Source: an uncultured Endozoicomonas sp. (GTDB lineage: Bacteria > Pseudomonadota > Gammaproteobacteria > Pseudomonadales > Endozoicomonadaceae). From it: a DNA stretch of 30,000 nucleotides. Location: the NCBI GenBank assembly GCA_900299555.1, contig OODV01000016.1:21065-51064 (forward strand), read 5' to 3'. The position numbers and the translations under genes are program-made. Of the stretch, positions 1,456 through 20,303 are shown piece by piece; within the stretch, counting starts at the first letter, position 1; the number at the start of each line of letters is the position of its first letter. The notes under the pieces are model-generated. The model worked only from the letters and a program-made list of their open reading frames with translations. It did no database searches and had not been told where the DNA came from.

Positions 1456-2052
1456 TCAGGCAGAAATTTTAGGCTTCACATCGGTGGTACCCATCAGCCG
1501 GGGTCGGTTCAACTCCATTTCAACCAGTGGCATCACCTCTTTCATGGTTTTGCCAGAGCGGATGGCCAGATCCTGATACTCTTTGGTATTCAAGCCTTTC
1601 CAGTGCATGTCCTGGTCAGACACCTGACGAATCGGTTTGGCCGGTGAACCAATCAAAAGCTGCCTTGCTTCACCCTGAAAGCCAGCTTTCACAAAACTCA
1701 TGGCCGCTACAATGCTCTCTTCCCCGATAACGGCACCGTCCATTACCACCGAGTTCATGCCAACCAGTGCATTTCGACGGATGACACAACCGTGAAGAAT
1801 AGCCCCATGGCCGATATGTCCATCACGTTCGACAACCGTGTCCATATCACAGTAGCCATGCATTACACAGCCATCCTGAAGGTTGGCACCCTCCTCCAGA
1901 ATCAAACGACCATAGTCGCCTCTCAGACTGGCAACAGGACCAATATAAACACCCGGACCAACTATCACATCACCAATCAATACCGCGGTTGGATGGACAT
2001 AGGCAGTAGGGTCTACCACCGGTACCAGTCCTTCAAACTCATAACAGGGCAT
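1456..2052 (-). CDS. caiE: Carnitine operon protein CaiE (left-handed beta-helix, hexapeptide-repeat / gamma-carbonic-anhydrase-like family)
   Basis: The 198-aa product contains [34 protein letters not shown]...SLRGDYGRL...[11 protein letters not shown]...[11 protein letters not shown]. It is near-colinear with E. coli CaiE as recalled. An AAGGGAGA ribosome-binding site lies just upstream of the ATG. Confidence 0.9.
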
Positions 2053-2065
2053 TACGATATCTCCC

Positions 2066-2157
2066 TTAAAAAACGCAGCCCGTCACCCGCTGCCCGCTTC
2101 CCGTATAAGCGAAGATTATCCTAGCTTTTACGGGCGACGGGCGACGGGCAGCGGGAG
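2066..2157 (-). terminator. GC-rich imperfect palindrome followed, on the minus-strand transcript, by a U6 tract; terminator- or attenuator-like element between fixX and caiE (copy A of a repeated element)
   Basis: cccgctgcccg (2086-2096) pairs perfectly with cgggcagcggg (2145-2155), and cccgta (2100-2105) pairs with tacggg (2129-2134). gcccgtc (2079-2085) can alternatively pair with either of two tandem gacgggc copies (2136-2142, 2143-2149). The plus-strand A6 at 2068-2073 gives a U6 after the structure on the minus transcript. Confidence 0.55.
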
Positions 2158-2179
2158 GTGAATAGCGTTTTAAAATTAC

Positions 2180-2467
2180 TCAGCCGTAGCGGAACTCAAT
2201 CCCAAAGGTACCCTGTGGGTAGTGCCATTTTTTGATAATGGTGTCACCACAGAGAATACGGCAGGTGCCACACTCCAGGCAGCCAGCGGAGTCAAAATGG
2301 ATATTGCCATTTTCGTCACGCTTGTAAAGGCCCGCAGGGCAGGCAGCTTCCAGCTTGGCAAATTCTGCCGGATCCGGATTCTCAACCAGTTCGATATGAG
2401 GATTGCCTTCATCAACAAAGAATTTGTTAATGCCCAGCTTTACATCAACATTGACCTTCTCGCTCAT
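2180..2467 (-). CDS. fixX: Ferredoxin-like protein FixX
   Basis: The product is 95 aa, the same length as E. coli FixX, with Cys motifs ACPAGLY...CLECGTCRILC. Its start overlaps the fixC stop as ATGA. Confidence 0.9.
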   Translation of the reverse strand: MSEKVNVDVKLGINKFFVDEGNPHIELVENPDPAEFAKLEAACPAGLYKRDENGNIHFDSAGCLECGTCRILCGDTIIKKWHYPQGTFGIEFRYG

Positions 2468-3750
2468 AGCGCAGTCGCTCCCTTGAAGCCATCTTTGATC
2501 AGGTTCATGAAACCGGCCTGCTTCAGGTGAGGCATCACAATTTTCCGCAGTGGAGCAGAAGTGCCGTTCATGGTGTAAAGGTCTTTCATGATGCCGGTCA
2601 TCATGGTTGGATACTGGTTAAACATTCTTGGGTTATCCAGGAAGCCGGGAACCTTCTTATAGAGCTGAAGGTCTTTCATCACAAAGCTGTTATCCAGCGT
2701 TGTTTTGTAGGAAGCCAGGCCTGCTTCACTGAAGTCGCCCGCCTCTTTAGCCTTGATGATAGCATTGGCAGCCGCTTCACCGGAGGCAATGGCCAGGTCC
2801 ATTCCCCGAATGGTAAAGCCAATATTCAGACAGAGACCTGCGGCATCACCGGCAATCAGAACGCCATCACCCACCATCTTCGGCACCATGTCATAACCAC
2901 CTTCCGGTACAACGTGGGCAGAGTACTCAACGGTCTTACCACCAGCGATCAGCGGCTTAACGGTTGGATGATTTTTGAAGTCTTCCATCATCTGAGGAAT
3001 GCTTTTGCTGACCTTGTCGATGTTATGCAGACCAAACACCAGCCCCAGAGAAACGCTGTCTTCATTGGTGTACAGGAAGCCACCGCCCATCTGGCCATCA
3101 GAAGGTGAGCCAACAAACAGCCAGGCAGCACCTTCATTATCCATGCAGCCAAAACGATCGTTGATCTGCTGGCGGCTCAGCTCAATGACTTCCTTAACAC
3201 CCACACCGGTGTTGTGTGCATTTACACCGGTCACCATGCCCAGCTTCTGGCCCAGCATGGAGTTCACACCATCAGCAAGAAGCACGACATCGGCTTCCAT
3301 CTCTTCGCCACCGGCAATAACACCGCAGACCTTACCGTCGCGAACAATCAGGTCATCAACATGAACACCCGGAACAATGCTGGCACCTTCAGATTCAGCT
3401 TGTTCTGCCAGCCACTGATCAAATTTTGAACGCAGCACAGCATAAGAGCGACTGCCTGGATCTGCGGCTTCAGGGCTTGCATAGTCAAGCGTCACACTGC
3501 TGCTGCCATCCATAAAAGAGACCTTTTCATGGACAATGCAGCGCTCAACTGGTGCTTCTTCAGCAAAGTTGGGGAAAATTTTCTCGATACTGTGGGCATA
3601 AAGACGACCACCGGTCACATTCTTTGACCCTGGAAAATTGCCCCGTTCAATGACCAGTGTTTCCAGACCGGCCTTGGCTAACAGGTACGCACTGATGCAA
3701 CCGGCAAGTCCTGCCCCGACAATGATTACATCAAATTTATCTTCGGACAT
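2464..3750 (-). CDS. fixC: FixC, FAD-dependent ETF-quinone-oxidoreductase-like flavoprotein
   Basis: The product is 428 aa, matching E. coli FixC in length. It has an N-terminal DVIIVGAGLAGC dinucleotide-binding motif plus GGRLYAH, GGGFLYTN and VLIAGDAAG, and is colinear with FixC as recalled. Confidence 0.92.
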   Translation of the reverse strand: MSEDKFDVIIVGAGLAGCISAYLLAKAGLETLVIERGNFPGSKNVTGGRLYAHSIEKIFPNFAEEAPVERCIVHEKVSFMDGSSSVTLDYASPEAADPGSRSYAVLRSKFDQWLAEQAESEGASIVPGVHVDDLIVRDGKVCGVIAGGEEMEADVVLLADGVNSMLGQKLGMVTGVNAHNTGVGVKEVIELSRQQINDRFGCMDNEGAAWLFVGSPSDGQMGGGFLYTNEDSVSLGLVFGLHNIDKVSKSIPQMMEDFKNHPTVKPLIAGGKTVEYSAHVVPEGGYDMVPKMVGDGVLIAGDAAGLCLNIGFTIRGMDLAIASGEAAANAIIKAKEAGDFSEAGLASYKTTLDNSFVMKDLQLYKKVPGFLDNPRMFNQYPTMMTGIMKDLYTMNGTSAPLRKIVMPHLKQAGFMNLIKDGFKGATAL

Positions 3751-3828
3751 GGTGTCCCCTCACTTCTAACGATATGCACCTGGTAGTGCAATTCCATTTA
3801 TTGATTAAACTTTTCCGGCCCACGCTGT

Positions 3829-5427
3829 TTATTGGCTTAAAAGAGCGTTATATGGGATGGCCCAGTAATAGATAAGAAAGGTGGAAACCAATACCCCGGC
3901 AGCCACCATAATCCAGCCGTAGTAGCGACTTCTGACATACTCTGCTGCCACTGTTTCTGATGCGGGTATCTGGTGAATTTTGTTCTGGTAAGTAATCTCT
4001 TCCATGGTTTTGGTCTGGCCTTTTGAGCCCCAGATACCCAGCACAATGCTGATGGCTACGCCAATAAAGAAAGGATCAAAAAGATTAACCAGCGGCACGC
4101 CAGCCAGCTCTTTAAGCAGCTTAGCGACCATATATCCAAAGAAACCGCCCGCCATGGCCAGGTAAGCGCCACGTTCTGTCAACTTCTTACTCCAGACACT
4201 GGCAAAAGCAACGTAACCCCAGGATGCCGCGATAATCGTGCTGGCAAACCAGGCAATGACACGAATACTGGCCATATCCATACTGGCGATCATCAGTGAC
4301 AGCAAACTGACCAGCAGCATCATCCCACGGGTAAAGCGAAGCTGTGATTTCTCACTGGCAAACTTGATATTCAGAATGTCGCTGGACAGGCTGAAGCCCA
4401 CCACCGATAGAAAAGTGCATGCGGAGGTGAGACCGGCTGTCAGAATACCCGCCAGTAAGGCAACACCCACAAGTGGAGGCATCAGTTCCATAGCCGCCCA
4501 GATCATGACCTTTTCAGGCTGATCCATCGCTGAATTCACAGGAATGACACTGATGGACATCAGATAGAGGTAGAGCAAAAAGATTACCGTCAGTAGTGCC
4601 ATCATCACACTGGAGCGCAGGATGACCTGCTCATTTCGAGCCATCAGGTTACGGCCAGCCTGCCATGGGCTGACGGCAACGGTTACCAGCCAGATAATCC
4701 CCATGGTAATGCCGTAAAACACCATATCAAACTCGGAGCCACCACGAGGGTTACCGTGGTAATCCAGCAGTCCCGGTGGCGTTTCTGGATTACGGGCCAG
4801 CGTATCAAGCAGATTCTCAAGACCACCCGCAGCTTCAAATACATAAGGCCCGGCAAAGATCGTGATGCCCAGGAAGAACAGGCACATAACAGTGTCTGTT
4901 AATACGCTTCCACGAGCACCGGAATAGAAGGTAAACAGGGTAATGCCGACCCAGGCAATCAAAAGACAGGTTACACGACTGTAACCAGTTAATGTTTCCA
5001 TCAGCAGGCCGGTACCCTGTAGAACACTGATCAGATAAGCGAACAGGGAGGCTACCGTAATCATGGCAGCAAGCCGGCGAATACGAACACTGTTGAACCG
5101 ATGAGAAAAATAGGTGGGCATGGTATTAACCATGGCCCTGCGAATATAGCGACCAAAAAACAGGCCACCGATCACATACCCTCCAGCACAGAGCGTATTC
5201 AGTAAAAGCATGGTGGTAATGTTGCCACCGTAGCTGAAAGCGGTATCCCCCATAAACCCATTAGTACTGAGCATGGAGGCAAATAAGGTGCAGGTAATGA
5301 ATAACGTGGGAGCATTGCGACCGCAGACATAATAATCATCAATGCCTTTAACCTTCATTCCGGCGTATGCACCAATCAACACGAATACAACAATGCTGAC
5401 AAGAACGCCGGCGGCATAAATACTCAT
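3829..5427 (-). CDS. Sodium:solute symporter (SSS) family transporter, substrate unknown
   Basis: The 532-aa polytopic membrane protein has an SSS-typical N-terminal region, GIDDYYVCGRNAPTLFITCTLFASMLSTNGFMGDTAFSYGG, and many hydrophobic segments. It lies between fixB and fixC. Confidence 0.85.
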   Translation of the reverse strand: MSIYAAGVLVSIVVFVLIGAYAGMKVKGIDDYYVCGRNAPTLFITCTLFASMLSTNGFMGDTAFSYGGNITTMLLLNTLCAGGYVIGGLFFGRYIRRAMVNTMPTYFSHRFNSVRIRRLAAMITVASLFAYLISVLQGTGLLMETLTGYSRVTCLLIAWVGITLFTFYSGARGSVLTDTVMCLFFLGITIFAGPYVFEAAGGLENLLDTLARNPETPPGLLDYHGNPRGGSEFDMVFYGITMGIIWLVTVAVSPWQAGRNLMARNEQVILRSSVMMALLTVIFLLYLYLMSISVIPVNSAMDQPEKVMIWAAMELMPPLVGVALLAGILTAGLTSACTFLSVVGFSLSSDILNIKFASEKSQLRFTRGMMLLVSLLSLMIASMDMASIRVIAWFASTIIAASWGYVAFASVWSKKLTERGAYLAMAGGFFGYMVAKLLKELAGVPLVNLFDPFFIGVAISIVLGIWGSKGQTKTMEEITYQNKIHQIPASETVAAEYVRSRYYGWIMVAAGVLVSTFLIYYWAIPYNALLSQ

Positions 5428-5621
5428 AACCCACTTCCCACAGGTGCGCCCGGTAATGCTTCCGGTGCTGTCACAGATGTTTCTTCAATATTGTTACTAT
5501 CAATGCTTTGCTGATCGTTAGAATTGTGTCTTTTTTGCTCAAGATATAAGACTCTATTCATCAACAGGCCAACACCTGACAGAAAGCTGCCAATAAACAA
5601 TGAAAAAATGATTTCACCCAT
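5424..5621 (-). CDS. Small single-pass membrane protein, possible accessory subunit of the SSS transporter
   Basis: The 65-aa product has an N-terminal hydrophobic helix (IIFSLFIGSFLSGVGLLM) and a polar tail. Its stop overlaps the SSS start as ATGA, which suggests translational coupling. A GGGAGA ribosome-binding site lies upstream. I recognise no family. Confidence 0.45.
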   Translation of the reverse strand: MGEIIFSLFIGSFLSGVGLLMNRVLYLEQKRHNSNDQQSIDSNNIEETSVTAPEALPGAPVGSGL

Positions 5622-5662
5622 GATTGAACGTCTCCCTGCCAGTTATAAGAACGCTTTCCGCA

Positions 5663-5722
5663 ACCCGCTGGCCGCTTCCCGTAAAAACATGTGTCTTATC
5701 ATTTTCGGGAAGTGACCAGCGG
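5663..5722. repeat. GC-rich palindromic element, copy B (REP-like), between fixB and the small ORF
   Basis: ccgctggccgcttcccg (5665-5681) pairs with cgggaagtgaccagcgg (5706-5722), 17 bp with 2 mismatches. The 21-mer acccgctggccgcttcccgta (5663-5683) matches 2085-2105 at 20 of 21 positions, in the same orientation. Confidence 0.6.
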
Positions 5723-5748
5723 AGAGCGGACGGCGAATCAGCTGATGC

Positions 5749-6695
5749 TTATTTCTCGCCAAACGCAGCAGTCAGTGCTGGCACGATCTTGTAAAGATCG
5801 CCAACAATGCCGTAGTCCGCGTATTGGAAGATTGGAGCATTTTTGTCCTTGTTCACTGCAACAATCACCTGGGCACTGTTGGCAGCAACCATGTGCTGGA
5901 TCTGACCGGAAATACCCAGTGCCAGATACAGTTCTGGTTTTGGCATCACACCGGAGATACCCACATAACGCTCCTGCTCCAGCCACTTCTCGCTCTCAGC
6001 GATCGGACGGGAACAACCCAGCTCAGCATCAATGGCAGCACCCAGGGCTTCCGCCATGGCGATATCTTCTTTTTTGGCAATACCACGGCCAATACTGACG
6101 ATACGTTTGGCCTTACCCAGGTCTACCTGAGTAGCCTGCTAGGCTGACGCTCCAGACACTTGATGGCTGCTTTTGGTGCAACGAATTCAACGTTGATGGT
6201 TTCACCGGTTCTGGCAGCGTCTTCGCTTTCAGGTGCAAATACACCACCACTGACAACCATCACGGCAAACGGAGAAGCCACTTTCTCCTGACCGTGGGCA
6301 AGACCACCGTAAACCATGCGCTTACCGGTAACACCGCCGTCTTCAACGGTCACGTCATACGCTTCAGTTACCACACCCGCCTTCAGCTTAACGCCCAGCA
6401 GAGAAGCCAGAGCTTTACAGCAGCGAGTGCCTGGCAGCAGAATCAATGCAGAGTCCGCAGCTTCAGAGATGGCCTTGGCCATGGTGTCAGCGTAATCTTC
6501 AACAATGCGTGAAGTTTCTCTGGCACCCAACAGATAAACTTTGTCAGCACCCTGGGCGTAGGCTTTTGCTACATCACCATCGGTGCCAATCACAAAAGCA
6601 GAAACCACATCACCCAGTTCACGGGCACCGGCAAGTACTTCTGCCTGACGGGATTCGACGTCGCTGAAAACCCAAACGTTTGCAATCTTACTCAT
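5749..6695 (-). pseudogene. fixB: fixB (ETF alpha-subunit homologue) interrupted by a frameshift
   Basis: ORF 6123-6695 (190 aa, MSKIANVWVFSD...EFVAPKAAIKCLERQ) matches the FixB N-terminal domain. A different frame, open from 6138 down to 5749, encodes [52 protein letters not shown]...[19 protein letters not shown], which matches the FAD-binding C-terminal domain. The frame change maps to about 6126-6143. Confidence 0.8.
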
Positions 6696-6706
6696 TGGTC
6701 AACCTA

Positions 6707-7486
6707 TCAATTCAGAATTTTACGCAGGTGGCTTACCAGCTCAGCGATTTGATCTTCACCGTCGCCTTCAATCATGACGTTGAGGCGTTCTTTCTGCTTG
6801 GGTGCTTTGGTTTCCAGCAATTCAACCGATGCTGTGCCCTGCGCTACGCCCAGCGCTGATGGTGTCATCGTACCTACTGGCTTCTTACCGGCAGCCAGAA
6901 TGGCCTTCATGCCAGGAATCGCAGGGGTGTTGATGTCTGCAGAAACAGAGATAACGGCGGGCAGAGTGACTTCCAGCACTTCCACTTCACTTTCCAGTGC
7001 ACGCTCAACCACCAGTTTGCCGTTGTCCGCAGAAACAATTTTGCTGACGCCGCTCAGGGTGGCGACATCCAGCAGTGCACCCAGACGGGTACCGACCTGC
7101 TGAGCCAGAAGGTCTCCGGAACCGTCACCACACAGGATCAGGTCAAAGCCAATCTCTCTGGCAGCAGTTGCCATCACTTCGGCCGTCTGCTCTGGCAGCA
7201 GATGCGTATAGGCATCGTCCATAACCGCAGTCATGGCGTCAGGACCGCGGGACAGGATGTCTTTACGGGCCTTGCTGTTTTCCAGGGTCTTGTCACCCAC
7301 GCTCAGAGCGGTGATGTGGGCTTCACCCACCAGGCCTTTTACTTCAACAGCTGCTTCAATAGCATTCAGATCAAATGGGCTGATCTTTGGCGTTGCACGG
7401 CTAACGTCCAGTGAGCCATCGGCCTGTACAACGATATCCTGCTCTTCAGGTACCAGTTTGCATCCAACAATAATTTTCATAGTCAT
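6707..7486 (-). CDS. fixA: FixA (ETF beta-subunit homologue)
   Basis: The 259-aa product contains MKIIVGCKLVPEEQDI...ISPFDLNAIEAA...LSRGPD...LILCGDGSGDL...IPGMKAILAAGKKP, colinear with E. coli FixA as recalled. The start could instead be the second ATG at 7480. Confidence 0.92.
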   Translation of the reverse strand: MTMKIIVGCKLVPEEQDIVVQADGSLDVSRATPKISPFDLNAIEAAVEVKGLVGEAHITALSVGDKTLENSKARKDILSRGPDAMTAVMDDAYTHLLPEQTAEVMATAAREIGFDLILCGDGSGDLLAQQVGTRLGALLDVATLSGVSKIVSADNGKLVVERALESEVEVLEVTLPAVISVSADINTPAIPGMKAILAAGKKPVGTMTPSALGVAQGTASVELLETKAPKQKERLNVMIEGDGEDQIAELVSHLRKILN

Positions 7487-7574
7487 TCAGCTTTCTACCT
7501 AAACTGCCCGGAGCACTCTGCCCCGGACATACTTCAAAACGACCTCTGCTCACCGGAACAGAGGGAGTGCATCT

Positions 7575-8426
7575 TTATTTCCACTCAGCGAGGGCGTAAT
7601 TCAGATATGCGATTTCTGGATCGTTGGCATCAATCACACGGAAGTGGATGGAGTTGTCATCCCACTTCCACATCTGGGTTTTGATGGTGCAGCCTGGGTA
7701 CAGAGACTTGGTAATCCGGGTCTTGAAGCGGGTCAGACGCTCAGGCTCACCAGGCAGCAGCGTGTTGATGATGTGACGGCAGGCAAAACCGGCAGTACTT
7801 ACGGCGTGCAGGTTTGGCTTGGGATGGTCAAACTTCTGGGCATATTCCCAGTCGATATGTTGAGGGTGGTAATCACCATTGAGACGATAGATGATTGCCT
7901 GGTTCAGAGGCACCTGTTCCACAACTTCAAAGTCAGGCTCTCTCTCTGGAATCTCAACGATATCCGCTGGTGCTTTTGGACCACCGAAGCCACCGTCGTA
8001 CAGACAGCAATCCCAGCTTTCATTGGTAAACAGCAGGGTGCCATCTTCATCAAAGGTCTCGCCAATATGCTGAGCCAGACAGCCACGACCTGGACCACGG
8101 TCATAAAGACCTTTCAGTAATACTTTGGTGCTGAGTTTGCCAGACAGCTTGGTCAGAGGCTGATGGAACTGAAGATCAAAGCCCCAGTGGAGGGAACCAC
8201 CCCACTCAAAACCAAAGTCGATGGTTTTGGTGACTTCGCTGTCCACAATCGGCATGGCAGCAAACATCGGCAGAATTTTCTGATCCTTTTCGTAAACGTA
8301 CTCAAGATCCGTCTTGCCATCGGCACCGGCACCACAGCCCAGGCCAAAGATAATCAGTTCACGGAAGTCATATTCCCGTTCAAAAGGGCCGTATGTCTTG
8401 CCCTGCATATCCAGTTTTAAAGCCAT
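7575..8426 (-). CDS. Hydratase-2-type (MFE-2-like, MaoC/double hot-dog) enoyl-CoA hydratase homologue occupying the caiD position
   Basis: The 283-aa product aligns by eye with the hydratase-2 domain of peroxisomal MFE-2 as recalled. Matches are GGFGGPKAP to GGFGGKRTS, LNQAIIYRLNGDYHPQHID to LNQAALYRLSGDWNPLHID, and RFKTRITKSLYPGCTIKTQMWK to [25 protein letters not shown]. It shows no crotonase-fold features. A GGAG ribosome-binding site lies upstream of the ATG. Confidence 0.8.
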   Translation of the reverse strand: MALKLDMQGKTYGPFEREYDFRELIIFGLGCGAGADGKTDLEYVYEKDQKILPMFAAMPIVDSEVTKTIDFGFEWGGSLHWGFDLQFHQPLTKLSGKLSTKVLLKGLYDRGPGRGCLAQHIGETFDEDGTLLFTNESWDCCLYDGGFGGPKAPADIVEIPEREPDFEVVEQVPLNQAIIYRLNGDYHPQHIDWEYAQKFDHPKPNLHAVSTAGFACRHIINTLLPGEPERLTRFKTRITKSLYPGCTIKTQMWKWDDNSIHFRVIDANDPEIAYLNYALAEWK

Positions 8427-8510
8427 GTCGATTCTCCACTATTTATTCAGAGGATGTTTCTATCGCTGTTTTTTCAACAATTACTTTTTGAATCTATTTT
8501 CCAACATTCA

Positions 8511-10106
8511 TCAAGCGGGTAACTCTTCCGGGTCTGTCCATACACAGACCCGCTCATTCTTCAGAACATTTTTCTTTACTTTGCCGGTACTGGTTCTTGG
8601 TAAACTTTTTCTAAACTCAACCGATGCCGGCACTTTGAATTTGGCTAATCGTTCTGAGCAATACCCTTGAATATCCGCTTCAGTCAGAAATGAATTCTCT
8701 TCCTGAACAACGACTGCTTTAACGATCTCGTCATACATTTCATCAGGGATGCCAATAACGGCTGCATCAAGAATATTCGGATGACTGATGAGAACATTTT
8801 CAATTTCTGTACTGGAGATATTTTCACCGGATCGCTTAATCAAATTGACATTGCGATCCATAAAGAAGAAGTAACCATCTTCATCCATGTGTGCAAAATC
8901 ACCCGTATGTAACCATCCATCACTATCATAGGTTTTGGCAGTTGCTTCCGGATTGTTGTAATACTCCCTGAACAGTGTTTTCCCGGGTATGCCTTTAATG
9001 ACAATCTCACCCAGTTCACCGGGTTCAACTTCTTTATTATTAGAATCGACAATTCGAATGTCATAACAGAACCCGGGCCTGCCAATAGCAGGCCACCGCC
9101 TTTCAAAACCTGGTGTATCAACGATATTACCAACGATGGTTTCTGTCATTCCGTAGGATGTTAATAACCTGACATTAAACCGATGAGTAAAATCTTCTTT
9201 CTCTTTCTCGGATAGATTTAAATAAAAGAGAACGTCTCGAAGCTGGTGTTCTTTTTCCCAGGGTGCTTCGGGCTGCAACATCAGAGTGCGAATCATTAAA
9301 GGAATACACTCTGTAACGGTTGCCCGATGGTGACAAATCTGACCCCAGAATTTTTTTGCGCTGTATTTTTCTACCAGGATTAATGCAGCACCGGAATGAA
9401 ATGCCGGCATTGCTGTAGTGCACTGAAAATCAATATGGCAGGCCGGCATGATGGTCAAATAACGGTCATCTTCTCTCAGTGAGCACATCCATGAACTGTA
9501 ATGCCCAGCAAAAAGTAGGTTGTAATGGGTTATTACCACTCCCTTTGGACAGGATGTAGTTCCGGACGTGAAAATGATCTCGGCAATATCATCACTGCTT
9601 ACCGGTACATTCCGGAGTAACTCGGTTGGCTGCTGTTTCAGCGCCCTTGAAAAGTTAAGGGCATCCGGAATATTTATATGGTCAGCAATACGGGCAACAA
9701 GAATTTGTTGTTGACTATCACCTGTGTGTTCAGCCTGATAGTTAGCAACAAACTGAGGCTCTACAATAACAGTTTTAATTTCACAGTGTTCAATAATGTA
9801 CCCACATTCATTCCGAAGACTATGAGCATTAATAGGTACAGTGATCGCGCCAATTTTGGCCAGACCAAACCAGCTGATCAGAAATTCGGGACAATTATTC
9901 AGTTGGGTAGCAACCCGATCACCTTTCTCAATACCAAGACTGAGAAACAGATTTGCGGCTCGGTTTATTTCGCCATTAAATTCTGCATAGGAATATTCAC
10001 TGATATTGCCCTCTGCATCTTCAAATACGACAGCCGTCCTTGAGCCATGCAAGTTTGCCAGCTGATCCCAGGCTTGCCGAATGTTTTTGTTACCCACTAA
10101 ATCCAC
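8511..10106 (-). CDS. caiC: Crotonobetaine/carnitine-CoA ligase CaiC (adenylate-forming enzyme)
   Basis: The 531-aa product has the AMP-binding motifs IIFTSGTTSCPKGVVITH, TSYGMTET and WLHTGD. It is colinear with E. coli CaiC as recalled (CPEFLISWFGLAKIGAI, YLNLSEKEKEDF). It starts at GTG. Confidence 0.9.
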   Translation of the reverse strand: MDLVGNKNIRQAWDQLANLHGSRTAVVFEDAEGNISEYSYAEFNGEINRAANLFLSLGIEKGDRVATQLNNCPEFLISWFGLAKIGAITVPINAHSLRNECGYIIEHCEIKTVIVEPQFVANYQAEHTGDSQQQILVARIADHINIPDALNFSRALKQQPTELLRNVPVSSDDIAEIIFTSGTTSCPKGVVITHYNLLFAGHYSSWMCSLREDDRYLTIMPACHIDFQCTTAMPAFHSGAALILVEKYSAKKFWGQICHHRATVTECIPLMIRTLMLQPEAPWEKEHQLRDVLFYLNLSEKEKEDFTHRFNVRLLTSYGMTETIVGNIVDTPGFERRWPAIGRPGFCYDIRIVDSNNKEVEPGELGEIVIKGIPGKTLFREYYNNPEATAKTYDSDGWLHTGDFAHMDEDGYFFFMDRNVNLIKRSGENISSTEIENVLISHPNILDAAVIGIPDEMYDEIVKAVVVQEENSFLTEADIQGYCSERLAKFKVPASVEFRKSLPRTSTGKVKKNVLKNERVCVWTDPEELPA

Positions 10107-10179
10107 TGAATCACCCCGTAACCGAGCAACAGGACAAAACCTTGTTGCTCAACTTTTTTTCAGCTTTCTTTCTCAAGAA

Positions 10180-10198
10180 GGTGGGCTGAAAGCCCACC
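10180..10198. repeat. Intercistronic hairpin between caiB and caiC
   Basis: ggtgggct-gaa-agcccacc forms a perfect 8-bp stem. A plus-strand T7 run lies about 20 nt upstream at 10154-10160. The CTGAAAG core and the GGTGG/CCACC ends are shared with the hairpin at 11518-11546. Confidence 0.5.
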
Positions 10199-10227
10199 TG
10201 AAGCTTCATTCTATTTATCAAAAAGCA

Positions 10228-11460
10228 TCACTCTCCGGCAGGAGCAATCCCCAGCTTGACGACACCTTTATCTGCCATCGCTTGAATGGCCTCATCGCTA
10301 TAACCGATATCATTCAGAATACTGGCGGTATCCATGCCATGTGTTGGCATACCACGCCAGACCTTGCAGGGGTTATTCTTGAACCGCGGCATGATATTTG
10401 GGCCCTTGTACACCTTGCCGGACGGAGTCTCCCACTCAATGAAGGAGTTACGGGCTACGTACTGGGGATGGGATTCCAGTTCCGGGATGTCCAGTACCTT
10501 GGAGAAGGCAATGCCGTACTCACCGTAAATGGCCTGGGCTTCCGCAATTGTCTTGCCAGCCAGGAATTCATCCAGATGATCTTCAACCAGCTGTGCAGAA
10601 GGCGATTTACGACTGATAAGCTGAATGCCTTCAGGAAACTCTTCCGTTCCCAACAGGTGCCCAATACCAATGGCAGGGAACATTTTCTCAATGGGTTTGG
10701 CACCCACCAGCTCCATAACCACATAACCATCGCGACACTTATAAACACCGCAGCCAACGTACAGAGGATCTTTACCACGGGTCATACGTGGGCACATTTC
10801 ACCACCGTTGAGGTAGTCCATCATGTAGTACTGCCCAACGTGGAGCATCACTTCATACATTGCCACATCAATGCTTTCGCCAACACCGGTTTTGTGAACG
10901 TTGTGAAGCGCGGCCAGGACAGAGCTGGTTACCGCAAAGCCGGAGATATAGTCAGCGGTGTATGGGAAAGCAGGCATTGGCTGGTCCACGTCACCGTTCT
11001 GAATCAGATAGCCACTGAAGGCCTGAGCGATGGTGTTATAAGCGGCACTATTCGTGTATTCATCCACACCAAATTGACCAAAGCCGGACAGGTGGGCAAT
11101 AACCAGTTTCCTGTTGTGCTCCCAAAGCAATTCATCGGTAATACCACGACGGGCAAAAGCAGGCCCCTTGCTGGCTTCGATAAAGATGTCTGCCGTTTCA
11201 ATCAATTTCAGAAAGGCTTCTTTGCCTTCATCTGAAAAAATATTGATAGCCATGGCATGAAGGTTTCTGCGGGACATTTCTGGATAGTTAGGCTGAACCC
11301 GGATCGTATCACCATAGGCAGAATGCTCAATCCAGATAACCTCAGCGCCCCACTCGGCCAACATTTGTGCTGAATATGGTCCAGCCACTTCGATGGCTGA
11401 AAAAACAACCCTTAATCCCTTTAAGGGACCAAACCCCGGTGTAAACAGTTTCTTGGACAT
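10228..11460 (-). CDS. caiB: L-carnitine CoA-transferase CaiB (class III CoA transferase)
   Basis: The 410-aa product contains [19 protein letters not shown]...WGAEVIWIE...[17 protein letters not shown]...FPYTADY...[12 protein letters not shown]...GMPTHGMDT, very close to E. coli CaiB as recalled. Confidence 0.93.
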
Positions 11461-11517
11461 GGTGTTTTCTCAAGGGGATAGCTGTCTATCCACTCTTAAA
11501 TTCTATTTTTTTCTGAC

Positions 11518-11546
11518 CCACCTCCGCTGAAAGTCAGCGAAGGTGG
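11518..11546. repeat. Intercistronic hairpin between caiA and caiB
   Basis: ccacctccgctga-aag-tcagcgaaggtgg forms a 13-bp stem with 1 mismatch. A plus-strand T7 run (11506-11512) lies immediately upstream. Confidence 0.5.
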
Positions 11547-11567
11547 AAAGACAACGATCGTTTTTTA

Positions 11568-12704
11568 TTAACGGTACTTCTTCAGTACCTGACGACCCAG
11601 TGTCAGGATCTGCATTTCGTCAGATCCACCGGAAACACGGTCAACCCGCAGGTCACGCCAGAAACGTCCAACGCGATGTCCAGTGATACCGATACCGCCC
11701 AGTACCTGCATGGCAGAGTCCACTACTTCGAAGGCAGCATTGGCACAGAAGTATTTACACATGGCAGCGTCACCGGAGTTCACAGTGCCGTTGTCGCACT
11801 TCCATGCAGTTTCATAAACCATGTTCTTCATGGCGTTCAGTTTGATCGCCATGTGAGCAAATTTTTCCTGGATCAGCTGAGTACGACCGATGGCTTCACC
11901 AAACTGGATACGCTGGTTGGCGTACTTGGCAGCGTCTTCAAAGGCACACAGGGCAATACCGTAGTTGGTGCAGGCAACCAGGAAGCGCTCTGCATCGAAC
12001 TCTTCCTTGACACGGTTAAAACCATTGCCTTCAGAGCCAAACATGTCCTTCTCTTCCAGCTCAACGTTGTCGAAGATCACTTCGCAGCAGCTATCCATGC
12101 GCAGACCGATCTCGTCCAGTGGGTTCAGCTTGATGCCTGGCTTGCTCATATCCACAAACCACTCAGAGAATACTGGTGAGTCTGGAGAAGCAGAGTCGCG
12201 GGCCATCACCACCAGGTAAGGACAGTGGGAGCTACTGGTGATAAAGCACTTGTGACCGTTCAGGTAAACTTTGCCATCCTTGCGGGTATAAGTGGTTTTC
12301 AGACTACCTACGTCAGAACCGGCACTTGGCTCAGTAATGGCGGAGTTCCACATTTGTTCGCCAGTGCCGCGCAGAGCAAAAATCTTGTCGATCTGTTCCT
12401 GGGTGCCATGACGCAGCACGGTGTTGAAACCAGGCAGCTGATACAGAACATAGGTAGGCGCACCGTGACGTCCAAGCTCTTCCCAGATAGCGGTCAGAGT
12501 AACCAGGCCAGCATCCATACCGTCGTGTTCTTCTGGCAGCAGCATGGTGTCGATGCCCAGTTCAGCCAGAGCCTTCACCCAGCGCAGTAGGTATTCGTGC
12601 TTTTCGTCACATTCAACGAAGTAGGCTTCCCAGTTCTCTCTTTCCATCAGTTCGCGGACACCCGCAACAAACAGTTCCTGCTCGTCAGATAAATTAAAAT
12701 CCAT
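11568..12704 (-). CDS. caiA: Crotonobetainyl-CoA reductase CaiA (acyl-CoA dehydrogenase family)
   Basis: The 378-aa product contains [20 protein letters not shown]...[24 protein letters not shown]...[11 protein letters not shown]...[24 protein letters not shown], near-colinear with E. coli CaiA as recalled. Confidence 0.93.
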
Positions 12705-12768
12705 GTCTAATACTCTTCTTTCTTAAGTGGTTCTTGTTTCAAAAAAGCTGCTTCACTGAAAAACAGAT

Positions 12769-14283
12769 TTACCAGCGATTCTTTTTGGCATCTTTCAGGA
12801 ATGCCCAGATAACCAGAATATTCACGATAGCCAGTGGCGCGCCCCCTGCGATGATGGCTGTCTGCAGAGGCTTCAGGCCGCCCAGGGCAAGCAGGGTAAT
12901 ACCCAGAATCCCCACCAGCAGAGACCAGCCAAGTCGAATCCACAGTGGTGGTTCGTCGTAACCCGTCGCTTCCTTACAGGTAGACATGGCCAGGGTGTAA
13001 GAACAGGCGTTTACCAGGGTGATCGTGGCCAGGAAACAGAGCACCAGGAAGACACCGATGGTGAAGGTGCTGAGTGGTAGTGTTGCCCAGATTTCGATAA
13101 TGGCCCGTGGTACATCGTTCTCACTGATGATGGTGCTGATATCCAGCAGTCCCTTGTGCATAACCTCAACGGTATAGCTGCCGAGGATGCCCCAGAGTGT
13201 CCATGTGGTCAGAGTCAGACCGCCCACCATGCCCAGACAGAGTTCACGTACTGTTCTGCCCTTGGAGATACGGGCAAGGAAGATGCACATCTGGATGCCG
13301 TAAATCATCCACCAGGCCCAGTAGAAGACAGTCCAGTTCTGAGGAAAACCACTCTCACCGATGGCATCGGTATAGAACAGCATCCTGCCGGCATTCATCA
13401 GGAGAACACCAAAGGAGTCGGTGAAGTAATTCAGAATAAAGGTGGTACCACCAACGATCAGAACCCAGGCAAGAACAAAGATACTCAGGTAGCTTCTCAG
13501 GTCACTGGCGATACGGATGCCTTTCTGAAGACCGAAGGCCACACAAATCGCGTTGAAAACAATGAGGAAAGAGATAATGGTCGCATCAACTTCCAGACTA
13601 CGCTCAATACCAAAAAGATACTCGATACACTCGGTAACCAGTGGTGTCGCCAGACCAAGACTGGTACCCATCGCCAGAATCAGCGCAACGATGTAAAGGT
13701 TATCTACGAAGGTTCCAAACAGGCCATTACTGTGCTTTTCACCCACCAGTGGTTCAATAGTCTTACTGGGGCGAATAACATTGACCTTTTTCACATACAG
13801 GAAGTAGCCAAAAGCAACACTTAACAGACTGTAGGTTGCCCAGGGTAAAGGTCCCCAGTGGAAGAGAGAGTAGGCAACACCGTATTCTTTTGCCTGTTGA
13901 GAGAAAGGTTCGATACCGAATGGAGGCGTGAGGATATAGTAATAAACTTCAATCGTACCCCAGAAAAGGACGGCTGCCGACGTACACGAAGCAAACATCA
14001 TGAAGATCCAGCTGGCAGTACTGAATTCAGGTTCCTCATCACCCAGCTTTTTATTGGCATAAGGGCCGAAGAGTAACCAGAAATAACCGCCCAGCATGAT
14101 GACCATGTACCACTCAAATGCCCAGGCCCATTTGTAGGTCACATATTGAAAGACCTGGTTAATCACCTGATTAGCGGCATCCAGGTCCCGAACCGTGAAA
14201 TAAATCAATATGGCAACAATAGCTAACGAAGGTATTGCTATCTTCGTATCTATTTTTATTGCCTTTTTTGATTCAGCATCCAT
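12769..14283 (-). CDS. caiT: L-carnitine/gamma-butyrobetaine antiporter CaiT (BCCT family)
   Basis: The product is 504 aa, the same length as E. coli CaiT. It contains [48 protein letters not shown] and [20 protein letters not shown] ribosome-binding site lies 7 nt upstream of the ATG. Confidence 0.93.
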
Positions 14284-15158
14284 TCAAACTTCCCCCTATT
14301 AAAAGCCTTGAATAACATACTAAAAAGCTAATCTGATTTTTGGGTGTTCAATCTTTTTTCTATAAATAAGTGTTTTCAACGATGGATCAATTGAATACTC
14401 AAAAACAGACTCTGAAACAGAAAATGAATAATCTGGAATAAAATTAATTCAGAAATTTACGAATAACTCATCATGAAGAAGACCAGATTTTAAGATAGCC
14501 ATAGCAGGACAGCTGGTCTTTAAATGATCAACAACACATCATAGTAATAAATGTAAATTCTCCCACTCATCTTAACCAGGAGATAAAAAATAAGCGCCTC
14601 TTTGAAGGCAGGCAGAATATAATATACTCACTATTTCCATAATTTGATTTGAAGCAATTATTGGATGAATAGTTTTTCCCTTTATCTTTCATTTACTATT
14701 CATAAACTTAAATAGTTTTGAGTATTTTTTAGACAACATAAAGCGTACGTCACTATTTATTAAAAAAACAGATTAAATATTATTCAGGATAAATATTGAC
14801 CTATTGCTCACTGATTGAGCAGTGGTTAAAAAAACACTAATAAAACAGTCAAGATTATTAACCTGAATCAATTTCTCAACCATCCATACAAAAATACATT
14901 TCAATAATTTGACGAGAATCATTTATTAATCATCAAAACATATCCGAATTGAAGAGCATTACTATCCAAGAAATAAAATAATCATCTTGAGAAAAAACAT
15001 TACCGGCGAAATCCTATATCTTTTTAACAATCCAACTCTGACCTCTGAAATGTAATTTTTAGGGAAGCCTTTATAAAAATGACTCATTTTGATAAAGGCT
15101 ATTTATGACAGGATTCTCACATTGAATTTCTGTATCCAGAAAGATACATAACCCAACA
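14284..15158. promoter_or_regulatory. 875-bp strongly AT-rich non-coding spacer; must contain the cai operon promoter and operators and the 3' end of the RpiR-regulator transcript
   Basis: No ORF of 60 aa or more lies on either strand. Only 5-10 codon ORFs without ribosome-binding sites were found by eye. Several inverted repeats are present: TTCAA-N11-TTGAA at 14375-14395, aagaccag/ctggtctt at 14479-14520, and tgctca-ctgat-tgagca at 14805-14821. Confidence 0.6.
15066..15100. terminator. 35-bp near-perfect AT-rich palindrome 59 bp downstream of the regulator stop; possible terminator or protein-binding site
   Basis: The sequence is agcctttat-a-aaaatga-c-tcatttt-g-ataaaggct. It has a single mismatch across 35 bp and is centred on TGACTCA. 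Confidence 0.4.
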
Positions 15159-16013
15159 TTAACTGGATACCTGATCCTCCTGACGGCAAAGTAACCCCAT
15201 CACCAGACATTGAGCCAGGTGCATAGAGGTACTCAATGAACGCATCCCCATCATTTCCGCTTCTTTAACCTGAAGCCCGTGGGTAATCACTTCTTTGCAG
15301 GGATGAATGCTGTGATCAGTCAATACCAGGGATGGGCAACGACGTTCATTGGCAATCTGAATGCACTCATTGGTCTCATCGGCATGCGGGTGGTAGCTGA
15401 CCGCCAGCAACAGGTCATTCTCAGTCAGCCGCTTTAGCTGGTTTTTATGCATGGCACCCACACCATCGAGCAAGATAACATCGACATCTGCACGCATCAG
15501 GGCATAGCAAAGGTAATAAGCCACCGGAAATGCACGACGAGCGCCAGTTACATAAATGATGCGTGCATTGCTCATCAAATCGAGCGCTTTGTCAAAATCG
15601 GCTGGAGAGATATCTACAGAAAGGTTTTCAATCGCCAGACTCTGCGGCCCAGAAAAAGCATCCAGCAAATGATGACCTTCTTTAATGGCGCCAGCCATTT
15701 CCGAAGCGTGTCGAACCCTCTCACGGTAACCACTGACTTGTCCCTTCAGCTGGCTGCGATACAACTGTTGTAGTTCAGAGAAACCGGCAAAGCCAAAAAA
15801 GTTGGCAAAACGCACCAGGGTTGAAGGCGACACATCAATCTCACGGGCAATAACCACCAGGTTTTCCAGTGCAACCGTATTGGGATTCTGAACAAAAAAA
15901 TCCGCAACCAAACGCAGGCGCTTACTCATTGAGTCGTAGCGATTGATGATATCACTTTTCAGTTCTTCAAGTGTCTGAGGTGTTGCTGGCTTCAGCTTGG
16001 TATTCATATTCAA
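15159..16013 (-). CDS. iolR: RpiR/MurR-family transcriptional regulator (N-terminal HTH, C-terminal SIS domain), probable inositol repressor
   Basis: The 284-aa product has an HTH_6-like N-terminus (RLRLVADFFVQNPNTVALENLVVIAREIDVSPSTLVRFANFFGFAGFSELQ) and a SIS-like C-terminal half (IIYVTGARRAFPVAYYL). It is adjacent to the iol operon, and GGAA-N6-TTCC palindromes sit in the iol promoters. Confidence 0.75.
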   Translation of the reverse strand: MNMNTKLKPATPQTLEELKSDIINRYDSMSKRLRLVADFFVQNPNTVALENLVVIAREIDVSPSTLVRFANFFGFAGFSELQQLYRSQLKGQVSGYRERVRHASEMAGAIKEGHHLLDAFSGPQSLAIENLSVDISPADFDKALDLMSNARIIYVTGARRAFPVAYYLCYALMRADVDVILLDGVGAMHKNQLKRLTENDLLLAVSYHPHADETNECIQIANERRCPSLVLTDHSIHPCKEVITHGLQVKEAEMMGMRSLSTSMHLAQCLVMGLLCRQEDQVSS

Positions 16014-16155
16014 TGACTTGTACTTGGTAATGGATCAAATGTGGATTCAGCCCTGCATATGCCTGGTAAAGAGCAGCAAAAACAATCACTGACTCAATCC
16101 ATCACCTATTTATACTCTCTTCTTTATTTAGACGGTCGCCACGGCAACCGTATTA

Positions 16156-16173
16156 TATACACACTTGTGTATA
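16156..16173. promoter_or_regulatory. Perfect 18-bp palindrome TATACACA-CT-TGTGTATA between the iolJ stop and the regulator gene
   Basis: Read directly from the sequence. It starts 3 bp beyond the iolJ stop codon (16177-16179) and lies 143 bp upstream of the regulator start. Confidence 0.4.
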
Positions 16174-16176
16174 AAA

Positions 16177-17019
16177 TTAGCCGCCATTCTTTCCGTAGAA
16201 CAGCTCCAGTTGATGACGTGCAGCATCTTCAACAGCCAACATCGCTGCAGCCATCAAGACCGGCCGGTCAAATTCCTCAGGATTAGCGATCATCGTTTCC
16301 CGAAGCTTACGGCCAAAGGCCATGCGCAGAACGGTACCAATATTAAATTTAGCGACAGCCCCCTTACGCATTCTGGTCAGGTCTTCTTCTTTGATGCCAC
16401 TGGTACCATGAATAACCAGAGGGGTCTCTACCGCATCGGCGATACGCGCCAGGCTGTCATGATCAATCGTGGCCGTTGGCTCTTTCAGACGATGGATATT
16501 TCCTACGGATACGGCTACAGCATCAACACCGGATTCTCTGGCAAAAGCGGCGGCTTCAAACGGATCGGTAGCAATGGTTTTAATGTGTGGACGAATATCG
16601 TCGTAAGGGACGGAACCAATCTCCCCTTCAACAGACACACCACAGGCATGAGCGACGTTAACCACCACACGGGTACGACGGATATTCTCTTCCAAGGGTA
16701 ACTGAGAACCATCAAACATTACGGAACTGAAACCATGATGAATACCCTTAAAAATAATATCCTCCTCATACGTATGATCAAGGTGAGCACAGACCGGTAC
16801 ACTGGCTTCTTTCGCCAGAGCACTGATCATCTGGGCAGCACTCGCAACTCCCATAAAGTCCACAAGGGTTTTATTAGCTGCGAGAATGACCGGTCGGTTC
16901 ACTTTTTCGGCTGCATTAACTACTGCCCTGGCATCTTCATAGCCAAAAACATTAAAGCAGGGTACAGCATAATCTGATTTTGCTGCGTCCGGCAGCAGGT
17001 CCCCAAGGTTCACCAACAT
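16177..17019 (-). CDS. iolJ: Class II aldolase, probable 6-phospho-5-dehydro-2-deoxy-D-gluconate aldolase (IolJ)
   Basis: The 280-aa product has class II FBA/tagatose-bisphosphate aldolase motifs: VCAHLDH, FSSVMFDGS, VSVEGEIG, AVSVGNIH, LVIHGTSGI and KFNIGT. It lies in iol operon context. Confidence 0.75.
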   Translation of the reverse strand: MLVNLGDLLPDAAKSDYAVPCFNVFGYEDARAVVNAAEKVNRPVILAANKTLVDFMGVASAAQMISALAKEASVPVCAHLDHTYEEDIIFKGIHHGFSSVMFDGSQLPLEENIRRTRVVVNVAHACGVSVEGEIGSVPYDDIRPHIKTIATDPFEAAAFARESGVDAVAVSVGNIHRLKEPTATIDHDSLARIADAVETPLVIHGTSGIKEEDLTRMRKGAVAKFNIGTVLRMAFGRKLRETMIANPEEFDRPVLMAAAMLAVEDAARHQLELFYGKNGG

Positions 17020-17051
17020 GGTCTTTCCACCTTACTATTGAGAGAGGGAAA

Positions 17052-17085
17052 GTACTGCAGGCTCCCTTACCCCCTACTGCAGTAC
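17052..17085. other. Intercistronic hairpin between iolB and iolJ
   Basis: gtactgcag (17052-17060) pairs with ctgcagtac (17077-17085), a perfect 9-bp stem with a 16-nt C-rich loop. Confidence 0.4.
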
Positions 17086-17105
17086 CCCCAAATTGTCACA
17101 GCCAT

Positions 17106-17951: not shown

Positions 17952-18027
17952 GTTTAACTCTTTCCCGGAGTGATTTCTGTAACCTTTGAAAAGCAATCGC
18001 ACTTCTCAAAGGCTTAATCGGATTTAC

Positions 18028-20189: not shown

Positions 20190-20241
20190 GGTCTTACTCT
20201 CAAATGGTCTTAAAAATGTTTTGAATTAATTTTTTCTGGTT

Positions 20242-20265
20242 CGGGCAGGCTTCCCCACCTGCCCG
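20242..20265. other. Intercistronic GC hairpin between iolD and the dehydrogenase gene
   Basis: cgggcagg-cttcccca-cctgcccg forms a perfect 8-bp stem. A plus-strand T6 run lies upstream, which becomes an A-run after the hairpin on the minus transcript, so this is not a canonical terminator for the operon. Confidence 0.45.
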
Positions 20266-20303
20266 TTATCCATAACGTATTGATTCAGTTTTCTATTGGG
20301 TGA

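Follow-up and report, generated by a model that had tools for sequence, protein, structure and literature searches.

The 30,000-nucleotide stretch analysed here, called the window below, comes from an uncultured Endozoicomonas sp., a symbiont of marine animals (assembly GCA_900299555.1, contig OODV01000016.1, positions 21,065 to 51,064). On its minus strand, from 14283 down to 1456 (12,828 bp), it carries a one-strand array of carnitine (cai) and fix genes in the order caiT-caiA-caiB-caiC-MaoC hydratase-fixA-fixB-65-aa open reading frame (ORF)-SSS transporter-fixC-fixX-caiE, SSS standing for sodium:solute symporter family; the ORF list of the window has 13 consecutive ORFs on this strand, from 14283 down to 320. 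This array belongs to a widespread and barely characterised variant of the cai/fix system. Its layout is real, prevails beyond Enterobacterales, Shewanella and Ferrimonas, and is not peculiar to this genome. Specific to the window are a reproducible frameshift in fixB, a single MaoC gene accompanied by a divergent caiB-caiC segment, and an appended esterase gene.

Genes were identified with NCBIfam and Pfam profiles (scores are given as bits/curated cut-off), and seven products of the array exceed their NCBIfam curated cut-offs. The first four genes encode an L-carnitine/gamma-butyrobetaine antiporter of the BCCT family that is 69% identical to E. coli CaiT (caiT, 12769-14283; NF002887 equivalog, 837/541), a crotonobetainyl-CoA reductase of the acyl-CoA dehydrogenase fold (caiA, 11568-12704; NF002885, 732/540), a family III carnitine CoA-transferase (caiB, 10228-11460; NF002914, 668/413) and a crotonobetaine/carnitine-CoA ligase (caiC, 8511-10106; NF005947, 819/651). 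The caiC gene starts with GTG and has the lowest GC content among the long genes (43%). The slot of CaiD is held by a gene (7575-8426) for a MaoC/hydratase-2 double hot-dog protein of 283 residues, presumed to be the carnitinyl-CoA dehydratase (Pfam MaoC_dehydratas and MFE-2_hydrat-2_N). It is followed by fixA, for an electron-transfer flavoprotein (ETF) beta-type subunit (6707-7486; NF002888, 359/219), and by fixB, for the ETF alpha-type subunit (5749-6695), which is split into an N-terminal frame (6695-6123) and a C-terminal frame (6138-5749). Next come the 65-aa ORF, predicted to form a single-helix membrane protein (5424-5621), the SSS transporter gene (3829-5427; Pfam SSF, 99 bits) and fixC, for an ETF-quinone-oxidoreductase-like flavoprotein (2464-3750; NF007542 FixC, 623/610). 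The ferredoxin-like product of fixX (2180-2467) has FixX (NF011993) as its best match over its full length, with 133 bits, below the equivalog cut-off of 166. The FixABCX set is therefore not intact as judged by these models, FixA and FixC being above their cut-offs, FixX below and FixB split. The hexapeptide-repeat protein encoded by caiE (1456-2052; NF010150, 388/305) is 74% identical to its E. coli counterpart. A gene for an Aes-like alpha/beta-hydrolase, or esterase (320-1372; NF007547, 455/389), starts 83 nt 3' of caiE on the same strand.

From caiT to caiE, the intergenic gaps measure 64, 107, 121, 84, 88, 11, 127, 78 and 127 nt (range 11-127), and two ATGA overlaps join the small ORF to the SSS gene (5427-5424) and fixC to fixX (2467-2464). 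The original prediction, made from the letters of the window, had described this gene order, the coordinates, the short gaps and both overlaps correctly, as the ORF list and the NCBIfam and Pfam profiles confirm. It had also placed cai and fix on a single strand, with the fix genes and the additional genes lying after the CaiD slot and before caiE, which is borne out. As for the span of 1456-14283, the run of genes stands, but caiE is most likely not its end: the esterase gene at 320-1372 is probably the final member of the array.

One of the closest known systems is that of E. coli and Proteus (caiTABCDE, fixABCX and caiF). CaiT, CaiA, CaiB, CaiC, CaiE and FixA/B/C/X are orthologous in the two, with the same presumed chemistry and electron supply, CaiT, CaiA, CaiB and CaiC all score above the NCBIfam equivalog cut-offs, and both have a stable hairpin after caiA. 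However, the annotated E. coli record shows two divergent operons and also caiF, in agreement with the contrast drawn in the original prediction, whereas the window has a single strand with the fix genes between the dehydratase slot and caiE. E. coli uses the crotonase CaiD where the window has a hot-dog hydratase-2 homologue, and a dedicated activator, CaiF, of which none was found in the genome of the window. It has YaaU, of the major facilitator superfamily (MFS), after fixX, in contrast to the SSS transporter and small subunit lying inside fix in the window. The appended esterase and the broken fixB of this strain are further differences.

To place this layout, 80 loci were collected with the MaoC protein as seed (one genome per species) and the proteins of the window and of E. 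coli were mapped onto them; 68 loci were complete enough to classify, and counts from this MaoC-seeded sample do not cover CaiD-only loci such as those of Enterobacterales. Cai and fix genes are co-directional in 57 of the 68, which span five phyla. The order of the window, with cai and maoC preceding fix, is found in 39 of these 57 (Endozoicomonas, Desulfovibrionaceae, Geopsychrobacteraceae, Sutterellaceae, many Actinomycetota and one Dormiibacterota), and fixAB(CX) lies ahead of caiC-maoC in the other 18 (Bacillota, Propionibacteriaceae and Nocardioidaceae). Shewanella and Ferrimonas account for all 11 divergent loci. The full arrangement of the window, including the small ORF and SSS gene between fixB and fixC, recurs in six other loci, three from Endozoicomonas and three from Desulfovibrionaceae. 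Among 63 Endozoicomonadaceae genomes, CaiA and MaoC occur in the same four, all from one genus and all with the layout of the window; CaiA was found in none of the 399 other genomes scored in an even sample of 400 Gammaproteobacteria. The original prediction had regarded the architecture as novel by contrast with E. coli, and had proposed a synteny comparison that would settle the matter. Made here, this comparison removes the novelty: the architecture is the only cai form in the source clade (4/4 cai-bearing genomes), most of the classified loci are co-directional, and there is a published precedent in Propionibacterium freudenreichii.

In that species, caiABC and fixABCX lie in one syntenic cluster that has no CaiD and carries an "enoyl-CoA hydratase" and a transporter between them (Scoary2 paper, Roder et al., bioRxiv 10.1101/2023.04.19.537353 = PMC11007987). 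The MFS transporter and alpha/beta-hydrolase genes of the cluster correlate with carnitine and acylcarnitine levels, a strain with split-off fixABC accumulates carnitine, and the clusters decay by pseudogenisation in some strains (PMC11007987). Unlike the window, the P. freudenreichii cluster lacks CaiT and CaiE, has an MFS transporter where the window has the SSS transporter and small subunit, and follows another gene order; its hydratase may be of the MaoC type. In our set, loci from Propionibacteriaceae and Actinomycetaceae encode MaoC proteins 59-62% identical to that of the window, and those of Actinomycetaceae also a YaaU-type MFS transporter. Desulfovibrionaceae (Maridesulfovibrio, Pseudodesulfovibrio and Desulfobaculum) share the order caiTABC-maoC-fixAB-small ORF-SSS-fixCX and form the nearest CaiA clade, with identities to the window of 86-89% for MaoC, 84-89% for CaiA, 80-86% for FixX and 65-67% for SSS. 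Their loci have no caiE and no adjacent esterase gene, whereas the window has both, and we found no publication describing them. The Shewanella and Ferrimonas loci, from the same class Gammaproteobacteria, share with the window caiTABC, MaoC (75-77%), caiE (75-82%) and a downstream esterase gene (28-32%) but differ by a divergent fixAB, as in E. coli, by a true CaiD beside MaoC and by the absence of SSS. One such locus, in Shewanella sp. MTB7, has been annotated as caiABCDE (PMC10059138).

For the protein in the dehydratase slot, the closest solved structure is human MFE-2 hydratase-2 (1s9c, E 4e-33), with which its catalytic Asp and His align, although in a variant motif (YRLNGDYHPQHID versus YRLSGDWNPLHID in 1s9c). 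Other families, belonging to at least five phyla, have homologues of the protein in their cai loci with 59-89% identity to it, and its counterparts in three sister Endozoicomonas are 99-100% identical to it (100% in E. elysicola DSM 22380 and 99% in E. atrinae). The window and E. atrinae have a single MaoC gene. A second paralogue, 54-55% identical and on a very long branch, lies directly 5' of the conserved gene in E. elysicola DSM 22380 and in a metagenome-assembled genome (MAG), at 9108-9959 of both loci (L002 and L003 in our collection).

In the window, this double hot-dog hydratase gene directly follows caiC without CaiD, and no CaiD orthologue was found in the genome, which is rated 100% complete; the best match, 35% identical, is a generic crotonase on another contig. 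CaiD is likewise encoded in none of the 57 co-directional loci but in all 11 divergent ones. There, in the complete Shewanella and Ferrimonas loci (11/11), a true CaiD, 84-89% identical to that of E. coli, directly precedes maoC. Since the two enzymes adjoin in these loci, MaoC is not simply a replacement for CaiD and may do a job other than, or additional to, that of CaiD. The order in Ferrimonas and Shewanella is caiTABC-caiD-maoC-caiE-esterase (L009-L020 and L038). The hydroxyl group formed by hydratase-2 enzymes (MFE-2/PhaJ) normally has the opposite configuration to the one that crotonases produce; the use of MaoC on L-carnitinyl-CoA is therefore not self-evident. A literature search on MaoC or hot-dog proteins with caiD, carnitine or crotonobetainyl-CoA found no paper describing a hydratase swap.

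Accessory genes also recur. The SSS transporter, which lies inside fix, scores below the cut-off of every NCBIfam SSS model and falls in no named subfamily; it is 65-67% identical to proteins in the same slot of three Desulfovibrionaceae loci, and we propose that it is an importer of carnitine or acylcarnitine. The 65-aa ORF has no Pfam or NCBIfam match. Its N-terminal 32-33 residues are 64-66% identical to ORFs in the same position 5' of the SSS gene in Maridesulfovibrio and Pseudodesulfovibrio, and the Desulfobaculum counterpart is 43% identical over 51 residues, so that it probably encodes a small subunit of the transporter.

Homologues of the adjacent Aes-like esterase lie on the same strand within 2.5 kb of the cluster in 52 of the 80 loci, before caiA in Actinomycetota, after caiE in Shewanella and Ferrimonas and after fixX-MFS in Sutterella. 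Within Endozoicomonas, the gene is polymorphic: this genome, E. atrinae and the MAG carry it, whereas E. elysicola DSM 22380 lacks it and has the next gene downstream immediately after caiE. It is a candidate acetyl- or acylcarnitine esterase. Furthermore, YaaU-type MFS transporters, 47-53% identical to E. coli YaaU, are encoded in the cai-fix clusters of Sutterella and Actinomycetaceae, which suggests that the uncharacterised yaaU belongs functionally to the carnitine system. The E. coli gene (L082 7984-9315) lies directly 3' of fixX, and its counterparts are at L045 14434-15735 and L054 10969-12285. No YaaU orthologue was found in the genome of the window, which carries the SSS transporter and small subunit instead. 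Elsewhere in the window, a plus-strand ORF (23639-25069) has a distant likeness (25%) to YaaU.

Judging from homology, the array would convert L-carnitine anaerobically to gamma-butyrobetaine via crotonobetainyl-CoA. CaiT would exchange carnitine for gamma-butyrobetaine, CaiC and CaiB would make and recycle the CoA thioesters, and the hydratase-2 homologue would perform the dehydration done by the crotonase CaiD in E. coli. Crotonobetainyl-CoA would then be reduced by CaiA with electrons from FixABCX. By analogy with P. freudenreichii, the SSS transporter, its 65-aa subunit and the Aes-like esterase would probably supply the pathway with acetyl- or acylcarnitine derived from the animal host.

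The cassette could instead act on a substrate other than free L-carnitine, such as D-carnitine, acylcarnitines as such or another host 3-hydroxy/enoyl quaternary amine, its specificity being set by the R-specific-type hydratase and the Na+-coupled importer. The stereochemistry expected of hydratase-2 and the deviant motif of the window protein fit such a substrate, as do the presence of MaoC beside CaiD in Shewanella and Ferrimonas, where it is not simply redundant, the second, 54%-identical MaoC paralogue of E. elysicola, the lack of a named subfamily for the SSS transporter and the recurrence of the esterase and accessory transporter. We nevertheless regard another substrate as unlikely: CaiT, CaiA, CaiB and CaiC exceed equivalog cut-offs trained on carnitine enzymes, CaiT is close to the E. 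coli antiporter, and P. freudenreichii strains with the CaiD-less cluster shift carnitine and acylcarnitine levels as a carnitine pathway predicts (PMC11007987). A bolder reading, to which we attach rather low confidence, is that the cassette is a module for the respiration of host acylcarnitine and not the E. coli pathway in another order. The SSS pair would import host acetyl- or acylcarnitine, the esterase would free the carnitine, and the hydratase would be mechanistically, and perhaps stereochemically, distinct from CaiD. If true, this would explain why both enzymes stand side by side in Shewanella and Ferrimonas, and CaiD-based surveys would miss most carnitine-reducing bacteria.

Turning to expression, the 875-bp non-coding spacer 5' of caiT (14284-15158) is AT-rich (29% GC) and is the only candidate promoter or control region for the array. 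It contains no ORF and no remnant of a CaiF or TetR gene, no Rfam family was found in the window, and over the roughly 550 bp closest to caiT the spacer has almost the same sequence in E. elysicola. Consensus scans for FNR and CRP sites gave nothing convincing near caiT: an FNR-like site with one mismatch (14657-14644) lies about 360 nt 5' of the caiT ATG, and no CRP-like site lies nearer than 820 nt. A search for CaiF, run without a positive control, gave no match up to E 0.01 in the genome and no tblastn match in the window, and the genome lacks an orthologue of the TetR regulator encoded ahead of the Thermodesulfobacteriota loci. On the coding strand, no sigma-70-like site was found in the internal gaps, the sole matches being inside caiC.

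The folding energy of each gap was compared with that of shuffled sequence and expressed as a z score. Significantly stable hairpins were found in five of ten gaps (caiA/caiB, caiB/caiC, maoC/fixA, fixB/small ORF and fixX/caiE; z -2.5 to -4.8); four gaps fold like the shuffles (z 0.1 to -1.8) and the remaining one is only 11 nt long. The earlier statement that hairpins occupy nearly every gap was thus overstated. The caiA/caiB gap (11461-11567; -36.3 kcal/mol, z -4.8) contains a 14-bp GC-rich hairpin. In the maoC/fixA gap (-34 kcal/mol, z -2.5), at the junction of the cai and fix modules, a terminator-like hairpin lies on the coding strand at 7564-7543, a 9-bp stem followed by UCGUUUUG; it is identical in E. 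elysicola, and a second hairpin occurs in the same gap (7487-7574).

Two other gaps contain copies of a repetitive extragenic palindromic (REP)-like element. Copy 1 lies in the fixB/small-ORF gap (5622-5748; -49.7 kcal/mol, z -4.1) and copy 2 in the fixX/caiE gap (2053-2179; -56.7 kcal/mol, z -4.8), where an inverted repeat (2070-2104/2137-2171), kept in E. elysicola (z -5.7), is followed by six U and the ribosome-binding site of caiE in a terminator- or attenuator-like arrangement. The copies themselves (5647-5686 and 2069-2108) are GC-rich and 80% identical over 40 nt, and they bracket the small ORF-SSS-fixC-fixX block. Their core motif, CGGGAAGCGGNCAGCGGG, occurs 16-27 times in the genome when up to two mismatches are allowed. 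A REP origin for all the hairpins was rejected, only these two palindromes being dispersed and the other hairpins unique in the genome.

Stable hairpins just after caiA were found in seven of nine lineages (the window, E. elysicola, E. atrinae, Geopsychrobacteraceae, Sutterella, Ferrimonas and E. coli), with z scores of -2.6 to -6.3 and unrelated sequences, and were absent from two Desulfovibrionaceae with caiA/caiB gaps of 42-45 nt. This hints at selection for structure at this point, which might for example act as a 3' decay barrier setting the ratio of caiT-caiA to downstream message. The original prediction had proposed that the layout controls stoichiometry, and this recurrence is its sole, indirect support. 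Besides the gap of the window, the hairpin-bearing gaps are L002 5854-5941, L004 6802-6950, L006 6790-6858, L039 6957-7051, L009 6072-6148 and L082 15882-16009; the E. coli hairpin looks REP-like.

A single operon, with one main transcript starting in the AT-rich spacer, agrees with the single upstream control region proposed in the original prediction and is plausible because the genes lie on one strand with short gaps and two coupled overlaps, the order is conserved across phyla and the internal gaps have no sigma-70-like site. Transcription would start 5' of caiT and read through the array, the internal hairpins modulating its 3' portions. The terminator-like hairpins at 7564-7543 and at about 2171-2070 argue against a simple uniform unit. 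The array might therefore consist of two or three head-to-tail units (caiTABC-maoC, fixAB-small-SSS-fixCX and caiE-esterase), each with its own start or termination, so that cai and fix would be regulated separately as in E. coli. Such units would agree with the position of the first hairpin exactly at the maoC/fixA junction, with the very stable palindrome and six U immediately 5' of caiE, and with the bracketing of one block by the REP-like copies. The parts also have different histories, caiE being gammaproteobacterial only, the core Desulfovibrionaceae-like and the esterase absent from E. elysicola, and the orders in Bacillota and Propionibacteriaceae show that modules can be shuffled. However, apart from the lack of sigma-70-like sites in the gaps, these gaps are short (84-127 nt) and largely taken up by the hairpins, two Thermodesulfobacteriota loci have a maoC/fixA gap of only 22-43 nt, and REP-type hairpins within an operon usually affect the stability of the mRNA and do not fully terminate transcription. 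Several units are in our judgement possible without being probable, and we keep the single transcript as the preferred reading.

The origin of the cassette was addressed with trees and identities. In the CaiA tree, Endozoicomonas is sister to Thermodesulfobacteriota (SH-aLRT support, the Shimodaira-Hasegawa-like approximate likelihood-ratio test, 99) and apart from the E. coli/Shewanella/Ferrimonas clade; the MaoC tree is similar but less well resolved. Identities to Maridesulfovibrio and Desulfobaculum reach 86-89% for MaoC, 84-89% for CaiA and 82-86% for FixX, and FixX is 77-86% identical to that of Thermodesulfobacteriota, whereas MaoC and CaiA are each 75-77% identical to those of Shewanella (in a comparison of the window only), below the Desulfovibrionaceae values. 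The CaiA grouping, these higher identities and the patchy distribution together suggest that the cassette passed laterally, in one direction or the other, between marine anaerobes and a small subclade of Endozoicomonas. Base composition was uninformative as evidence of transfer (49.4% GC for the array versus 46.8% for the genome). No empty site of the island came to light: the one cai-less Endozoicomonas (G017) with an orthologue (93%) of the RpiR-family regulator gene that flanks the spacer is not syntenic beyond that gene.

The Endozoicomonas array also looks composite, since among the 80 loci caiE occurs only in gammaproteobacterial ones and since two genes of the Thermodesulfobacteriota loci, for a TetR-family regulator and a metallo-beta-lactamase (MBL)-fold protein, have no orthologue in the genome of the window. 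Both genes lie upstream in Maridesulfovibrio, Geopsychrobacteraceae have the same TetR gene (60% identical), and Endozoicomonas has neither. The TetR gene lies 5' of caiT in two Thermodesulfobacteriota (L005 2194-3638 and L006 2238-3002). The MBL-fold gene that joins it in Maridesulfovibrio is also found inside actinomycete clusters (L054 12356-12961).

At a finer scale, the window and E. elysicola are 93-100% identical over caiT-caiA and 90-100% from maoC through caiE but only 52-74% over about 11620-8427 (caiB-caiC), with sharp breakpoints at the post-caiA hairpin, whose gap forms the left breakpoint, and at the start of maoC. In this segment, the identity to E. atrinae is 68-90%. CaiB is 62% identical to that of E. 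elysicola and 96-97% to that of E. atrinae, the corresponding values for CaiC are 67% and 89%, and E. elysicola CaiB falls outside the group of the window CaiB in the tree. From this drop in identity and the CaiB tree, we conclude that the middle of the array has been exchanged among close relatives. At least three caiB-caiC alleles circulate among them. In the MAG OZ239981, caiC is apparently interrupted (L003 5482-6762): a 426-aa ORF without Pfam match, perhaps an insertion, separates a shortened caiC from another caiC-like piece.

The lesion that splits fixB is a 1-nt deletion at about 6141-6139, the two frames meeting at about 6141-6123 and covering positions 1-179 and 213-311 of the 313-position NCBIfam FixB model. 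An intact fixB of 315 codons, with one more A, is present in E. elysicola, E. atrinae and the related MAG (...CCTAAGCAGG... versus ...CCTAGCAGG... in the window). The truncated product of 190 residues is also encoded on Logan contigs, independently assembled, from ERR664236 (and one more sample) and ERR361041. The deletion is thus reproducible for the strain and not an accident of one assembly. The Logan DNA with the frameshift is 100% identical to the window, which speaks for reproducibility within the strain and not for spread in a population.

A sequencing or assembly artefact, with a fully functional locus in the living strain, would be in line with the draft state of the source assembly (638 contigs), with the nature of the lesion, one A missing from an AA pair, and with this complete identity of the lesion-bearing copies, which may go back to one DNA preparation or platform. 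It is nonetheless very unlikely, since the same product comes from at least two runs of different accession series and a further sample through independent Logan assembly, a 2-base run is not a typical site of homopolymer errors, and all other genes of the array are intact. Programmed frameshifting was ruled out, three close relatives having a plain intact frame; inspection by eye found no slippery heptamer of the form X XXY YYZ where the frame shifts.

With a genuine deletion in fixB, this strain has probably lost the reductive step or carries it out poorly, since the lesion would block it. The only other ETF-alpha gene of the genome is 31% identical to fixB. The locus may hence be decaying in this strain.

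Taken as a whole, we consider it probable that the array is a horizontally acquired, "MaoC-type" carnitine-reduction cassette on one strand, with the roles proposed above, a likely single transcript and a broken fixB. Several of the observations reported above weigh against this reading: the FixX score below its cut-off, the stereochemistry normal for hydratase-2, the presence of CaiD next to MaoC in the divergent loci, the two terminator-like hairpins inside the array, the seeding of the locus sample with MaoC and the strict identity of all frameshifted copies.

For anaerobic carnitine reduction, the arrangement known from E. coli, with two divergent operons, CaiD and CaiF, is a minority layout. 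Most sampled lineages join cai and fix in a single block and have another dehydratase, an additional transporter and an esterase, a fused layout that was already known in dairy propionibacteria from P. freudenreichii (PMC11007987). The physical fusion of cai and fix gives independent comparative support to FixABCX as the dedicated electron supply of CaiA. Moreover, marker surveys that rest on caiD or on the E. coli operon structure will under-count the potential for converting carnitine to gamma-butyrobetaine, which bears on gut studies of precursors of trimethylamine N-oxide (TMAO) and on the metabolism of animal symbionts. In a few Endozoicomonas species, host carnitine or acylcarnitine may serve as an anaerobic electron acceptor. 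The trait is patchy and mosaic in this genus, and in this strain it is apparently being lost.

Beyond the spacer, 5' of the array, the region 15159-22157 encodes the RpiR-family regulator and a myo-inositol catabolic set composed of a class II aldolase, iolB, iolC, a GFO/IDH/MocA dehydrogenase and iolD.

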